Assembly: GCA_965208675.1 (NCBI GenBank)
Contig: OZ242351.1
Span: forward strand, 3,648,001 to 3,712,000
DNA from: Candidatus Poribacteria bacterium
Lineage (GTDB): Bacteria > Poribacteria > WGA-4E > PCPOR2b
Direction of reading: 5' to 3'
Length of the DNA stretch: 64,000 nt
In this document: positions 24,823-27,942 of the stretch, piece after piece
Layout: each line of letters starts with the position of its first letter
Position numbering within the stretch: position 1 is the first letter of the stretch
Program-made: the position numbers and the translations under genes
The notes under the pieces: generated by a model
Told to the model about the DNA's origin: nothing
The model's input: the letters and a program-made list of their open reading frames with translations, nothing else
Database searches by the model: none

Positions 24823-27800
24823 ATGTCACACAACATCACCGCATTATGGCACAAAAAATCTTTTGACCAACTGATGAACAATCGGCTGCCAGACCTACTC
24901 GCCGAGCGATTGCCGATAGCTGGCTACCATTTTGAACCTACCAGCACCTACACCGGTTGTATCAAAATCTCCCTCACGTCAACTGATGGCGACGTTGAAG
25001 TCGAATACACCGATATCCCGCAACCGGACAAGGAAGGGATGTTCAAAATTGACGGAGAAAACTATGTTGTCGTTCCAACGGCTTCGACTGATAACCTGAA
25101 AAAAGCGAAAATCAGATGTATTGGAGAGCAACTATATAGTTATATCAAAATGCGCTTGAAAGGTGCCACCTTAGACCTGTCATGGGAAACAGCCCCTGTA
25201 CGATCATGGCTCCCGCTTGATAAATGGATACAGGAATTCTTTCGTGACACATTTTACTCGCAGAAACTTCAGGAGACCAACTGGCTCGACAAGTATAGGC
25301 ATCTTCGACGGTTATACGTTCTGAACCGCGAGCAGGTATTCACGCCCTCCCACTTCGGGCGGGCATGCCCTTTCGAGACGCCAGAGGGGCCAAACATAGG
25401 TCGAATCCTTACGATTGCTAGGGGCGCCGAGATTCGCGGCGGAAAACTGGTCGTCGTTGATGAAAACCCCGAAGCAAACCTCGGCTTAGCATCGGCAATG
25501 ATCCCATTTCTTGAACACAACGATCCTGCCCAGACAATGATGGGGGCTAACATGTTGTGTCAGTGGATGGCGCCTTCGTCTCCGGAGACAGCTCCACTAC
25601 GCCAAGCCAAAGAGATACCGAGGTTGGCTGCTGCTCCGGAGCCCGCACTTGTCCAAACTGGTTTAGAACCGGATGTGCCCGACTTTTGGTGCGGTCGCAA
25701 CCTATTGACCGCTTTCATTTCTTGGGGCGGCGATACCTTCGAAGACGGCATCGTGATAAGCCGGTCGTGCGCAGCGCGTCTAAAATTTCCTTATGCAGTT
25801 GAACCCGGCGATAAGATTGGCAACCGTCATGGAACGAAAGGCGTCGTTTCGCGCATCCTGCCTGACGATGAGATGCCGCACCTTGCCGACGGTACACCGG
25901 TGGAACTTGTATTCAGTTTCGGTGGCTTGCACGCGCTAATGAACCTCGGTCAATTACGAGAGGCGGTGATGGGGCGTATTGCACGACTGGAAAATAAGCC
26001 AGCTATCGTGCCGCCATTCCGCGCTCCCTGTGCGGATGAATTGCGCGAACGCCTTAAGAACGCAGGACTTCCGGAAGATGGAATGGAACGCCTTACATTT
26101 GGGAGGAACGGTAATAAGGTGGGGCGGCATAGCACAGTCGGTTGGGTGTATTGGGGACGTCTGGCTCATATTGCGTTAGATAAAATAAAAGCCTCCGACT
26201 CAACCGATATTGAAGACCATAGGTACTTCCAAACACTTGGTGAACTTGAATACGATAGACTACGCAACGCCTCAGTACTTGAAACATTGAGGGAACATTT
26301 TAACACCCGCGCCATGAATCGGACTGATGCGCATACGTTAGCGGAGCGCGTCGCAATAGGCGAAGTTGAGCAGGCGGGTCCGCCGACGCCGATGTTCGCT
26401 AACCTCACGAATCGACTCTCGGCAGCAGGAATTTGGGCCGAACTCTACGGCGGCAAGTTGATTTTTAAATTTGGGCGACCGAATGGAAATACGCTCAAGC
26501 TTGCTCAGCCCGTCCCTTATCCGTGGTGCCGCGATCGAATCCTTGATGAAGTCGGGGTCCGTGAAGGCATGCCTGAATATCAGTCGCTTGCCGATGTCAA
26601 CGCCAGGGCTGACCGTATGCTTGCGAGTAATGCACCGGAAAGTTTAACCCGCCAAACCATCGTGCAGCTCCAAACCCGCGTCGCGGATTATGTCAATGCG
26701 CTCCTAAGCCCAACCGTCATGAACTTTAAGTCACGGAGCCTCTTCAGCGGACGCGCTGTCATAGCACCGGGTGCAGAGTTACACGCTGATCAGGTCGGTA
26801 TTCCGGAGGAGATGGCGTGGGCACTCTTTGGACATCATGTTACAAATCGGCTCGGTGATGCCGAAGAAGTACGGCGGCGTAGTCAAGGTGCAACACAAAT
26901 CCTGGATGAATTGATGGCGGGTTCGTGGGTAATTGTGCTTCGTCCACCGGCGCATACACTCACTAACCTCGTTGCGTTCCATCCGGTGCGGCACCCCGAC
27001 CGTGTCATCCGCGTGCATCCATTCGTGTGCGAGTTTATGAACGCCAATTTTGACGGCGATCAAGCAGCAGTCTTTCTCCCAATCACTGAAACCGGACAAC
27101 GCGAAGCCGGTGAACGGCTTTCCATCGCCGGGCATCTGAAACACGACCCAAGTTTATCCAAATTGCTGGCACCGACGCATGACGCGATGTGGGGATTGGC
27201 ACATTTAAGCCTCACCCCGGAAGGGCGCGGCGAAATCGCAGAGATTGTCGGAACCAACATCCCCGCCCCAGACGGTCTGGTTAGACAAGATTCGCTGGCA
27301 AAGTCACTAGAAGCCATCCTCAAATGCGATGGAATAGACCGCACGATTGAAATAGCCGAGCGTCTAATGCGGCGCGGGCTCGCAATTACTAAGGAATCGG
27401 GTGCCTCCATGAGCCCATTTATCAGTAGACCCGCTGGCAGCCCATCCGTTCCGGTAGATCCCGATGATGCACCCGCTTGGAACGCTCACGCAGAGGAACT
27501 TATCGAGTGGCTTGCCGCGTGTAACGACTTCGCGGACAACAACTTGGGACCGCACATCCTTGCGGCAAAAAGCCAAGACGCACGCAGTAGACTTTATCGA
27601 ATCGCTTGCTGTGTCGGGGCAAGAGGTACGGTTTTGGACCTTCGAGGAAGAGATATCATCGTTCGCAACGGGTATAGCGACGGTTTAACACCCGGTGAAC
27701 TTTACCCGCTTTCCGTCACTTCGCGGGAGGAGATTGTGCGGCTCAATTTGGAACGGCAACGGATAGAATTGGAATTGCGCAACGACAGTGAGCCAGCAGG

Positions 27801-27942
27801 ATTCACCGTCCTGGTGCGTGCAATGCGTGCCAAACACCCAGGTGTCGTTTTCGCCCGAGCCGCTGCAACCGGTGAGGTCGATCCGCTTACTGATGTGGAC
27901 AGCCGTCTTTTCGTCGGGCTACCTGTATCAACTGAGGAGTGA
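24823..27942 (+). CDS. Miniaturised single-chain RNA polymerase beta-beta' fusion homolog (~1039 aa)
   Basis: GGAGGAGG RBS. Beta motifs in order: HFGRACPFETPEGPNIG, IPFLEHND..MGANM, FEDGIVIS, PGDKIGNRHGTKGVVS, QTLGELE. Then beta' motifs: FSGRAVI, NANFDGDQ, PTHDAMWGL, DGLT, AAATGEVDPL. Confidence 0.9.
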   Translation: MSHNITALWHKKSFDQLMNNRLPDLLAERLPIAGYHFEPTSTYTGCIKISLTSTDGDVEVEYTDIPQPDKEGMFKIDGENYVVVPTASTDNLKKAKIRCIGEQLYSYIKMRLKGATLDLSWETAPVRSWLPLDKWIQEFFRDTFYSQKLQETNWLDKYRHLRRLYVLNREQVFTPSHFGRACPFETPEGPNIGRILTIARGAEIRGGKLVVVDENPEANLGLASAMIPFLEHNDPAQTMMGANMLCQWMAPSSPETAPLRQAKEIPRLAAAPEPALVQTGLEPDVPDFWCGRNLLTAFISWGGDTFEDGIVISRSCAARLKFPYAVEPGDKIGNRHGTKGVVSRILPDDEMPHLADGTPVELVFSFGGLHALMNLGQLREAVMGRIARLENKPAIVPPFRAPCADELRERLKNAGLPEDGMERLTFGRNGNKVGRHSTVGWVYWGRLAHIALDKIKASDSTDIEDHRYFQTLGELEYDRLRNASVLETLREHFNTRAMNRTDAHTLAERVAIGEVEQAGPPTPMFANLTNRLSAAGIWAELYGGKLIFKFGRPNGNTLKLAQPVPYPWCRDRILDEVGVREGMPEYQSLADVNARADRMLASNAPESLTRQTIVQLQTRVADYVNALLSPTVMNFKSRSLFSGRAVIAPGAELHADQVGIPEEMAWALFGHHVTNRLGDAEEVRRRSQGATQILDELMAGSWVIVLRPPAHTLTNLVAFHPVRHPDRVIRVHPFVCEFMNANFDGDQAAVFLPITETGQREAGERLSIAGHLKHDPSLSKLLAPTHDAMWGLAHLSLTPEGRGEIAEIVGTNIPAPDGLVRQDSLAKSLEAILKCDGIDRTIEIAERLMRRGLAITKESGASMSPFISRPAGSPSVPVDPDDAPAWNAHAEELIEWLAACNDFADNNLGPHILAAKSQDARSRLYRIACCVGARGTVLDLRGRDIIVRNGYSDGLTPGELYPLSVTSREEIVRLNLERQRIELELRNDSEPAGFTVLVRAMRAKHPGVVFARAAATGEVDPLTDVDSRLFVGLPVSTEE

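Follow-up and report, generated by a model that had tools for sequence, protein, structure and literature searches.

A sigma-linked, single-chain RNA polymerase homologue with altered catalytic residues in Poribacteria looks like a natural pseudo-polymerase

Does a trimmed, single-chain RNA polymerase that has lost catalytic residues still make RNA, or has it been kept for something else? Few residues in biology are more conserved than those of the Asp triad and the arginines with which RNA polymerase contacts the NTP. A gene that departs from both lies in the window analysed here, a 64,000-nt stretch of contig OZ242351.1 (positions 3,648,001 to 3,712,000) from a Candidatus Poribacteria assembly (GCA_965208675.1); coordinates below are those of the window. 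An earlier note, made from the letters of this stretch, had claimed that the catalytic machinery of the encoded mini polymerase is selectively altered, and that the protein is probably a pseudo-enzyme or an enzyme with different chemistry. The host of this sigma-linked mini polymerase is a sponge-symbiont bacterium.

The gene occupies 24823..27942 on the forward strand, as do all features below, and encodes 1,039 a.a. The open reading frame as listed spans 24703-27942, and the ATG at 24823 is its most likely start, because a ribosome-binding site (GGGAGGAGGAG) lies upstream of it and alignment places it in register with the starts of four orthologues. Pfam recognizes Rpb2_3 (residues 148-204), Rpb2_6 (326-458, E 2.3e-37) and Rpb1_2 (691-763, E 1.5e-15) within this one chain, the latter two (PF00562 and PF00623) representing both barrels of a two-barrel polymerase. 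In a phmmer search of the PDB, the protein matched β chains at E 3.6e-42 and β′ chains at E 4e-18, and its AlphaFold model had a pLDDT of 93.4 and a pTM of 0.91. Structural and HMM alignments delimited a β/Rpb2-like half (about residues 1-545; 24823..26457): VIA-align superposed model residues 1-501 on 5n5y_B (Z 30.5, rmsd 2.9 Å over 482 residues) and residues 1-551 on Thermus thermophilus β (5xj0_C, Z 27.2), and the HMM pieces mapped to β 475-580, 654-708, 786-824, 1054-1146 and 1177-1342. Positions 565-775 of the family HMM aligned to β′ 267-512, and two long helices (residues 584-601 and 606-627; 26572..26703) are, by HMM and model, the counterpart of the β′ clamp helices, which bind sigma region 2 in the bacterial holoenzyme. 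The bridge helix (residues 957-988; 27691..27786), aligned to β′ 719-798 and a 32-residue helix in the model, is directly followed by a C-terminal block of only 51 residues (27787..27942). As the earlier note had stated, neither a trigger loop nor a jaw follows the bridge helix, and SI3 was likewise absent there by family HMM, model and sequence of the window protein, in which no TMRTFH-like motif was found. The family HMM alignment to β′ ends after 719-798, and the best local alignment of the C-terminal block, to β′ 1331-1361, was not significant (score 36, versus 29.5 ± 4.0 and a maximum of 44 for shuffled sequences). Scores against models of the canonical subunits fell far below their cutoffs (TIGR02013 for rpoB, 166.1 bits versus 801; TIGR02386, 75.7 versus 963.5; the fusion model PRK14844, 154.3 versus 4,632). 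The ORF at 24823-27942 is a fused β-β′ two-barrel RNA polymerase homologue.

Canonical β and β′, including the fusions PRK14844 and PRK09603, share the barrels, fork, clamp helices and bridge helix with this family, and their catalytic motifs are also found in most of its members. They differ in size, at about 2,750 a.a. for β plus β′ versus about 1,040 a.a.: the trigger loop, SI3, the jaw, β′ residues 1-260 and β ~830-1050 are absent from the family, with the aligned blocks jumping from β 824 to 1054. YonO, of the Bacillus subtilis prophage SPbeta, is likewise one chain of ~100 kDa with both barrels and without a trigger loop (PMC5467207). The likeness, drawn from its description, is one of design only: YonO is a very distant homologue of multisubunit RNAPs, and the active centres lack sequence homology beyond a few residues (PMC5467207), whereas the window protein is chromosomal and has strong Pfam and NCBIfam β/β′ matches. 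In addition, no sigma partner is reported for YonO (PMC5467207), whereas the window's family always comes with its own ECF sigma. Also compared by description, Orf6 of the yeast linear killer plasmid pGKL2 is an Rpb2::Rpb1 fusion of 982 a.a., with the same order and a similar length of ~1,000 a.a. (PMC2919709), but it is eukaryotic, plasmid-borne, derived from Rpb2/Rpb1 and without a sigma.

The polymerase homologue is the second gene of a two-gene operon, and the first (24092..24706) encodes an ECF sigma factor of 204 a.a., assigned from synteny and from matches to Pfam (Sigma70_r2, E 2.5e-18; r4, E 1.2e-11; Sigma70_ECF, E 3.6e-09; PF04542, PF04545, PF08281) and to TIGR02937 (117.4 bits, above the cutoff of 42.9). 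It consists of region 2 and region 4 only, which is the ECF architecture. All 17 loci with flanking sequence have a sigma orthologue immediately upstream of the polymerase gene in the same orientation, and the mean column identity of the sigma is 70% over 18 sequences. Upstream of the sigma gene, by 142 nt, is GTGAAC-N15-GGTGTCA (23951..23978), a block conserved among five aligned upstream regions, which we infer to act as an ECF-type promoter. All 18 loci have their best match to it 44-157 nt ahead of the sigma gene, with all 13 specified bases matched in 12 of them, 11 in five and nine in one; the match is 13/13 in the window's genus, and the 4.89-Mb genome contains only two exact matches, the other of which is inside an ORF. 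The spacer between the two genes carries two heptamer tandem arrays (ACGCATT x4.4 and CACACTA x4.4; 24729..24793, Tandem Repeats Finder), and their copy number varies between species and, by 7- and 14-nt indels, between near-identical strains. ECF sigma/anti-sigma operons follow the same pattern, in which an ECF-type promoter under autoregulation drives the sigma gene and, behind it, a co-transcribed partner; in the window, the second gene is a polymerase-core homologue and not a known anti-sigma domain. In PMC7826278, which re-classifies the ECF sigmas, the main text yielded no such pairing of a sigma with a polymerase homologue.

At least 120 full-length homologues were found, with 50-94% identity and 95-100% coverage among the matches listed. 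By record title the family occurs in Poribacteria and Armatimonadota, and a few source-given protein names mention Chloroflexota and Hydrogenedentes. We found no description of a sigma-linked β-β′ family of ~1,000 a.a. in the literature searched and no full-length relatives in phage or plasmid collections; none of the PADLOC anti-phage defence models matched the polymerase homologue, and the sigma gave only a weak HTH-type match (E 0.0017). We aligned 201 distinct full-length family members of about 1,000-1,100 a.a., numbering residues after E. coli K-12 rpoB/rpoC through the family HMM. Catalytic residues were kept in most sequences, both in β′ (D460 in 187, D462 in 199, D464 in 198 and R425 in 190) and in β (K1065 in 189, R1069 in 201, H1070 in 197, K1073 in 195, R1106 in 193 and H1237 in 194). 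At β R678, 175 sequences have Arg, 17 His, five Gln, three Lys and one a gap. Since most members keep the full catalytic set, the family is probably an active enzyme, and its ancestral activity would have been a trigger-loop-independent nucleotidyl transfer. YonO, in which no trigger loop is detectable, is reported to make RNA as efficiently as multisubunit RNAP (PMC5467207). The lack of a trigger loop and jaw, which had been counted as evidence for a pseudo-enzyme, is a family-wide trait and not a sign of inactivity, because most members are catalytically complete and YonO is active.

The window protein itself departs from this picture at four residues, the codons of which were read directly. 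The catalytic loop (codons 740-746; 27040..27060) reads NANFDGD: AAT at 27046-27048, one transition from GAT, places N742 at β′ D460, while D744 and D746 are kept. The first Asp of the otherwise invariant DxDGD triad is thus Asn here, as in 12 of the 201 family members, with Gly in two more and the triad complete in 187. Codon 237 (CAG, 25531..25533, in DPAQTM) encodes Gln for β R678 of the γ-phosphate pocket, and codon 372 (CTA, 25936..25938, in HALMN) encodes Leu for β R1106, a γ-phosphate/PPi contact, so both NTP γ-phosphate arginines are lost, as the earlier note had read. Not mentioned there is a fourth change at a conserved residue, codon 246 (TGT, 25558..25560), giving Cys for β R687, which we take to be an RNA or nucleic-acid contact. 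The residues said to be retained were all confirmed by the HMM alignment: E307-D308 for β E813/D814 (25741..25746); K331, R335-H336 and K339 for β K1065, R1069, H1070 and K1073 (25813..25839); H449 for β H1237; and R707 for β′ R425 (26941..26943). Together with P709 (β′ P427), K331, K339, D308 and R707 are the remaining two-barrel invariants, all present. The canonical rpoB and rpoC of the same genome are intact, with DANRALMG, PSRMN, NADFDGD and TMRTFH. In RNA polymerase, Mg A and Mg B share D460 as a ligand, the NTP γ-phosphate sits in a basic pocket made by the universally conserved R678 and R1106, and K1073 contacts the α-phosphate (PMC13198411); the three aspartates are among eight residues invariant across all two-barrel polymerases surveyed (PMC2919709).

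The window protein belongs to a clade of nine sequences (support 1.0), including four species genomes of one genus, in which D460N has become fixed. To see what else changed there, we scanned all 1,039 positions for those with at most eight parsimony changes outside the clade (tree length 80.7, mean 44.5 changes/site) and at least two inside it (length 0.75, mean 0.67 changes/site), counting on a FastTree topology in which two clade-internal nodes are weak (support 0.11 and 0.31). This unbiased scan returned only positions 237, 246, 372 and 391, namely β R678, R687, R1106 and one Gly. The changes in the clade versus the rest numbered 3 versus 8 for R678, 4 versus 1 for R687 and 2 versus 5 for R1106, whereas D462, D464, E813/D814, K1065, R1069, H1070, K1073, H1237 and R425 had none in the clade. 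Of the 178 positions conserved across the family, 157 have no change in any of the nine members; the fixed changes among the other 21 are A224S, A485V and R774H/Y, and no fixed compensating basic or acidic residue was seen. R678 is kept by four of the nine and R1106 by six, R687 is Cys in five, and the window protein has all four changes. Across the family, D460 was lost in five independent lineages (14 sequences). R1106 was lost in three of these (5/14 sequences, versus 3/187 bearing D460), with Leu only in the window sequence, L007 and P0005; R678Q occurs in 5/14 versus 0/187, all five inside the D460N clade; and R687 was lost in 5/14 versus 1/187, the latter a conservative Lys, the other 186 having Arg. 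The alteration around D460 in this clade is selective, not protein-wide, in line with the earlier claim. As a trait of the mini polymerase as a kind, however, the claim fails: D460N holds in 9/9 clade members, whereas homologues outside the clade mostly keep NADFDGD and both arginines (187/201, 175/201 and 193/201 over the family), which limits it to this lineage.

The gene itself is maintained. The polymerase dN/dS within the clade, based on the four members with DNA, was 0.18-0.27 at dS 0.21-0.48, the same range as in catalytically intact family pairs (0.16-0.22 at dS 0.24-0.36), so there is no global relaxation; that of the sigma gene was 0.19-0.22. Within-species differences were mostly synonymous (five synonymous and three non-synonymous in the polymerase gene of contig X5). 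The rest of the protein, its sigma and its promoter stay under family-typical purifying selection. Kept by selection despite its lost catalytic parts, the window's protein looks like a natural "pseudo-polymerase".

How might this have come about? The locus is a two-gene module, an ECF-type sigma followed by the trimmed β-β′ fusion of 1,039 a.a., both driven by the conserved ECF-type promoter. In this genus, the Asp bridging metals A and B became Asn by one G-to-A transition that went to fixation, after which R678, R1106 and R687 were freed from constraint and replaced again and again. NTP-dependent RNA synthesis would thereby be abolished or reduced by orders of magnitude, and the retained function would need the fold, the metal-A aspartates, the primer- and hybrid-contacting Lys, Arg and His residues and the sigma partner. 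Candidate roles are binding of nucleic acid, of its own sigma or of both, as a regulator of the autoregulated operon. Both the loss of activity and the binding role are our inferences from sequence. Our preferred reading, held with roughly even confidence, is that the active site has lost the use of its NTP/metal-B half and that the protein persists in a binding role with little or no catalysis.

The strongest alternative, to which we give an appreciable but clearly smaller chance, is a still working polymerase with modified chemistry, in which the Asn742 carbonyl oxygen ligates the metal, other residues, another metal (e.g. Mn2+) or another substrate stands in for the γ-phosphate pocket, and the lost arginines serve to adjust substrate affinity or charge balance once Asn is in place. 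Asn, too, can serve as a ligand for one Mg2+ through its side chain. For this reason, and because all three aspartates were changed in the inactive YonO mutant, a single D-to-N may leave slow or Mn-dependent activity. In that mutant, with all three replaced by Asn, elongation complexes still form (PMC5467207). The strict retention in the clade of D462, D464, both lysines, R1069, H1070, E813/D814, R425 and N458 could equally mean ongoing catalysis. D-to-N at the first Asp arose three times, with D462 and D464 unchanged in all 12 Asn-bearing sequences, so the change could be tolerated or adaptive rather than inactivating. The dN/dS equal to that of intact relatives and the activity of YonO also fit this alternative, and the rate at the arginine sites, 2.7-5.3 changes per unit tree length where the protein averages about 0.9, equals or exceeds the neutral one, which leaves room for positive selection. 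Against it stand the bridging role of D460, the universal conservation of R678 and R1106 and the invariance of the first Asp across two-barrel polymerases. Moreover, the arginines gave way to different residues (Q, C, L), which are scattered unevenly among close relatives and even strains, a pattern that looks like drift, not like a designed new pocket, and a fixed compensating charge is lacking among the 21 altered conserved positions.

It is quite improbable that the gene is simply decaying, with D460N as the first hit of an ongoing pseudogenisation and the module functionless in the genus. The module is dispensable in the phylum (among the matches listed, only 30 of 176 genomes have a whole-model match), the copy in G049 is split into two pieces with one TGA, that in G031 is a 159-a.a. 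remnant, and a second Poribacteria clade also lost catalytic residues. However, the dN/dS values are far below 1, the 1,039-a.a. ORF is open throughout in all four genomes from the genus and in five further metagenome variants, most conserved positions are untouched, and the sigma and promoter are kept. Sequencing or assembly error has a negligible chance. In its favour, the strain has R678Q and L738F as private changes, seen only in its own assembly and the likely source-run contig (X5, X6 and X8 have CGG and TTG at codons 237 and 738), but that contig has a k-mer depth of 23.7 and no differences. AAT at codon 742 recurs in three other species genomes (L007, L008 and L017; four independent genomes in all) and in the near-identical Logan contigs (not raw reads) X5 and X6 of two other studies; wherever a piece covering 27046 shows an "other letter", the listed differences of these contigs explain it. 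The window shares CTA at codon 372 with L007, X5 and X6, and Gln at 237 recurs in L008 and P0008-P0010.

The selective alteration and the purifying selection together fit what the earlier note had proposed, a pseudo-enzyme or an altered chemistry. More speculatively, and on balance rather unlikely, the family could be a second sigma-dependent, single-chain bacterial transcription machine that was turned several times in Poribacteria into a dead "core mimic", a feedback partner of its own ECF sigma. In such a mimic metal A would be preserved, along with the clamp helices and the residues that contact RNA and DNA, and the protein would serve as an anti-sigma-like decoy or a promoter-bound regulator.

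A lineage with changed catalytic residues under selection is a natural experiment on the non-polymerising roles of a polymerase core. The surrounding family may matter more: a chromosomal β-β′ fusion of ~1,000 a.a. paired with an ECF sigma and a conserved promoter of its own, possibly spread more widely than Poribacteria and Armatimonadota. If the intact members are active, they would constitute a minimal sigma-dependent RNA polymerase, which would show which parts of the enzyme promoter-specific transcription truly needs and could provide a compact orthogonal transcription tool, with the D-to-N clade supplying ready-made inactive controls and revertant designs. If the mimic reading is true, the clade would offer a pseudo-polymerase that arose in nature from the cellular RNA polymerase.

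The locus consists of two plus-strand genes lying between minus-strand neighbours, the downstream one an SDR gene. The first gene (24092-24706, +) encodes an ECF sigma factor (Pfam Sigma70_r2, r4 and ECF; 117.4 bits against TIGR02937, with a cutoff of 42.9), and the second gene (24823-27942, +) encodes a polymerase homologue harboring Rpb2 domain 3, Rpb2 domain 6 and Rpb1 domain 2 (Pfam) in one beta-beta' chain. The polymerase gene as listed starts at GTG 24703; since ATG 24823 is preceded by GGGAGGAGGAG and four orthologues begin at the same place, this ATG is almost certainly the true start, giving a protein of 1,039 a.a. 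Two tandem heptamer arrays, ACGCATT and CACACTA (24729-24793), fill the intergenic spacer from the sigma stop codon to the polymerase start codon, and their copy number varies among near-identical strains (7- and 14-nt indels) and among species. On the minus strand, ORFs 23372-23590 and 23590-23772 adjoin each other in different frames and may represent one frameshift-split gene. The genome, a single 4.89-Mb contig with 96.4% completeness, carries the polymerase homologue as a single copy and also encodes normal rpoB and rpoC, with the DANRALMG, PSRMN, NADFDGD and TMRTFH motifs intact.

In a PDB sequence search, residues ~77-459 of the polymerase homologue matched beta chains (E 3.6e-42) and residues 638-804 matched beta' chains (E 4e-18). 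The first ~500-550 residues of the AlphaFold model, built with 115 homologues as input (pLDDT 93.4, pTM 0.91), superposed from the N- to the C-terminus on the second-largest RNAP subunits (5n5y_B: Z 30.5, rmsd 2.9 Å over 482 residues; Thermus thermophilus beta: Z 27.2), and the top Foldseek matches of the model consisted entirely of RNAP beta chains (lowest E 4.7e-23). The retained parts were mapped by aligning the family HMM to E. coli K-12 rpoB and rpoC, the numbering of which is used here for beta and beta' residues. Beta 475-580, 654-708, 786-824 and 1054-1342 are kept, with the aligned blocks passing straight from 824 to 1054 and beta ~830-1050 absent; what is left of beta' comprises 267-512, from the clamp helices through the catalytic loop, then 586-640, and finally 719-798, reaching the bridge helix. 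The trigger loop, SI3, the jaw and beta' 1-260 are absent from both the HMM alignment and the model, in which the bridge helix (H957-988) is followed by just 51 residues. An assignment of this C-terminal block to beta' region H was rejected, as the local alignment to beta' 1331-1361 was not significant. By sequence, the protein is a trimmed version of the canonical bacterial beta-beta', and the closest in design are YonO and pGKL2 Orf6, the latter a 982-aa Rpb2::Rpb1 fusion (PMC2919709). The canonical equivalog cutoffs (NCBIfam) are missed by a wide margin, and the Asp triad that defines the superfamily is broken in the window's genus; the protein is homologous to RNAP, but annotating it as a DNA-directed RNA polymerase subunit would be unwarranted.

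At least 120 full-length relatives were found (990-1,106 a.a., 50-94% identity), with more among the 50%-identity representatives. The locus records name Poribacteria and Armatimonadota/Chthonomonadales, and a few source-given protein names mention Hydrogenedentes and Chloroflexota. Among 201 distinct full-length family sequences, the catalytic residues are highly conserved: beta' D460 in 187, D462 in 199, D464 in 198 and R425 in 190; beta K1065 in 189, R1069 in all 201, H1070 in 197, K1073 in 195, R1106 in 193, H1237 in 194 and R678 in 175 (plus 17 His and 3 Lys). Judged from this conservation, therefore, the family as a whole looks like an enzyme. The lack of a trigger loop, taken by the earlier note as a sign of inactivity, is the normal state of the family and loses that meaning; YonO, with no detectable trigger loop, has been reported to synthesize RNA with an efficiency equal to that of multisubunit RNAP (PMC5467207). 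In the ESM Atlas clusters, several other single-protein length classes (about 1,220-1,790 a.a.) contain both Rpb2_6 and Rpb1_2, and are mostly named 'hypothetical protein', with a few automatic RNA-polymerase-type names. Fused beta-beta' proteins thus appear more varied than the family studied here.

An orthologous ECF sigma gene lies directly before the polymerase gene, on the same strand, in all 17 loci with an upstream flank, and sigma identity declines in parallel with polymerase-homologue identity across loci. In addition, the motif GTGAAC-N15-GGTGTCA precedes the sigma gene by 44-157 nt in all 18 loci (12 match at 13/13 bases, five at 11/13 and one at 9/13), and constitutes a putative ECF-type promoter at 23951-23978 (+) in the window. 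A sigma gene behind its own motif is the arrangement typical of autoregulated ECF promoters. The distance from the motif to the sigma start is 142-157 nt in the window's genus, versus 44-85 nt in all other loci, which leaves an extra ~80-100-nt leader in this genus (window 23951-24091). The exact pattern matched twice in the window's genome, at its own operon and inside an ORF with no same-strand gene downstream; with one mismatch allowed, there were eight matches versus four in the reversed control. The motif is essentially unique in this genome, and the search of it defined no regulon. As for a mobile origin, tblastn against phages and plasmids returned no full-length relative, only partial matches to canonical rpoB/rpoC that covered at most 51% of the query; a defence system was rejected as PADLOC gave no match.

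The earlier note had proposed that the catalytic machinery is selectively altered. The substitutions on which it relied are all present, as read directly from the codons and placed through the family HMM alignment: N742 for beta' D460 (AAT, 27046-27048, +), Q237 for beta R678 (CAG, 25531-25533, +) and L372 for beta R1106 (CTA, 25936-25938, +). A further change, C246 for beta R687 (TGT, 25558-25560, +), was not on its list, and K1065, K1073, E813/D814, H1237 and R425 are retained, in agreement with it. In the maximum-likelihood tree, the window protein and eight others form a clade (support 1.0) with Asn at 742 in all nine members; four of these come from the four species genomes of the window's genus, where the ORF is uninterrupted in every case. 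In the sister clade (30 sequences), position 742 is Asp, save for a nested pair, P0029/P0034, with an independently gained Asn; a third origin is L012, a locus in another Poribacteria clade. Within the window's clade, R678Q and R687C each occur in five of the nine members and R1106L in three, and the arginine states differ between the window protein and the 94%-identical P0003, and also between strains.

We scanned all 1,039 positions for sites with at most eight parsimony changes in the rest of the tree (length 80.7, mean 44.5 changes per site) and at least two in the clade (length 0.75, mean 0.67). Four sites were returned: position 237 (beta R678; three changes in the clade, eight in the rest), 246 (beta R687; four and one), 372 (beta R1106; two and five) and 391 (a loop Gly; three and eight). 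No clade changes occurred at D462, D464, E813/D814, K1065, R1069, H1070, K1073, H1237 or R425, and 157 of the 178 family-conserved positions were untouched in all nine members. This unbiased scan upholds the selectivity of the alteration, and the interpretation given in the earlier note thus receives partial support. R1106 was lost in three of the five independent D460-loss lineages (5/14 sequences), versus 3/187 of the D460-keeping sequences. A fixed change at R774 was rejected as a partner of the D>N change: none of the other D>N lineages has it, and 16 sequences with D460 do.

A second Poribacteria clade with a damaged active site comprises L011, L012, L014, L015, L021, L022 and L023 (1,082-1,096-aa forms), in which beta K1065 is replaced by A, T or S in five of seven, and R678 by His in five and deleted in one (L023). 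L012 keeps the Arg at R678, has lost three residues of the neighbouring MGANM motif and carries N460 and Q1106; it is 90% identical to L014, yet four catalytic positions differ. The dN/dS of this clade is 0.15-0.22 despite the damaged active site. In the distant members P0158, P0192 and P0163, the Asp triad is wholly or partly destroyed (G-S-Q, G-G-L and D-D-N) with further catalytic losses, indicating that inactive variants arise elsewhere in the family too.

In the E. coli RNAP Michaelis-complex structure, as described in PMC13198411, D460 is a ligand of Mg A as well as of Mg B, R678 and R1106 together make up the basic pocket that receives the incoming-NTP gamma-phosphate, R1106 also holds the leaving pyrophosphate, and K1073 is in contact with both the alpha-phosphate and the end of the primer. 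The three Asp are among eight residues invariant in all two-barrel polymerases surveyed (PMC2919709). In the window's clade, the bridging carboxylate would have been lost first and its loss fixed, after which the three arginines would have passed from near-absolute constraint to an about neutral rate; the simplest explanation is that NTP binding and metal-B chemistry ceased to matter. Selection has continued to act on the metal-A ligands, on the residues holding the hybrid and the RNA 3' end, and on the fold, sigma and promoter. From these sequence patterns, we infer, with about even confidence, that the window protein is a polymerase core that is non-polymerising or very slow and is kept for binding, its likely partners being nucleic acid and/or its own sigma in the operon's autoregulatory loop. 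Both the HMM alignment and the model contain the clamp helices. In the holoenzyme, sigma region 2 docks on these helices. A sigma-polymerase complex prediction (residues 300-1039 and the full sigma, both as alignments, run without controls) scored 0.30, below its mark of 0.32, and does not bear on this binding.

The main alternative, to which we give a distinctly smaller chance, is that the Asn still ligates metal and the enzyme works with an altered metal or substrate preference. In its favour, D>N has recurred at this single site, and the remaining catalytic residues are strictly retained. Plain decay of the gene is much less probable, given the uninterrupted ORFs in the genus and the dN/dS of 0.18-0.27 between the window and the three other species (dS 0.21-0.48), which equals that of family members with an intact active site sampled in other habitats (0.16-0.22 at comparable dS). 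The same equality rejects a global relaxation of the clade, leaving only the NTP pocket relaxed. The sigma has a dN/dS of 0.19-0.22 and the neighbouring housekeeping-type genes 0.06-0.14; versus these neighbours, a 386-aa gene (29900-31060, -), labelled 'ankyrin' from sequence alone, reaches 0.29-0.48. When scaled by tree length, conserved positions changed only about 1.7 times as often in the clade as in its sister (18 polymorphic/0.75 vs 24/1.72, after dropping nine gap columns due to one truncated sister-clade sequence). For the sister clade, represented by DNA from one member, the metagenome scan returned no close relative of the locus L009: the best full-length match reached 57% identity, and one 307-residue fragment, L079, reached 68%. 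Finally, an artefact is extremely improbable, since the AAT at 27046, which the earlier note named as a possible read error, recurs in three other species genomes and in near-identical contigs of two other studies (X5 and X6).

This strain comparison used Logan contigs, and no RNA dataset was among the 24 runs listed for the locus; the listed differences of X5 and X6 account for every mismatch of the pieces covering 27046, and a third contig, X8, was left out for codon 742, with three of the ten 'other letters' in its covering piece unlisted. Because codon 237 is CGG and codon 738 is TTG in both X5 and X6, R678Q and L738F are confined to the window's strain; L372 and N742 are found in other strains too.

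Whole-model matches occur in at least 30 of the 176 phylum genomes among the matches listed (a tally of 142/176, inflated by canonical rpoB matches, was not used). The largest family of the phylum (112 genomes) has canonical rpoB matches only, among the matches listed. Two other genomes, which share a family within the phylum, carry damaged copies, one broken in two pieces with a TGA (G049:C2:821098-824204) and one a 159-aa C-terminal remnant (G031:C1:2648695-2649150). The gene is not decaying in the window's lineage, although the module is dispensable in the phylum.

The family was not found described in the literature searched, but mentions of it may exist in supplements and in some older surveys that this search did not reach. 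Within the same scope, no report was found of such a protein paired with its own ECF sigma and promoter, or of natural clades in which the active site is altered. The interest for transcription specialists is high, and lies mainly in the family and its natural pseudo-enzyme variants.
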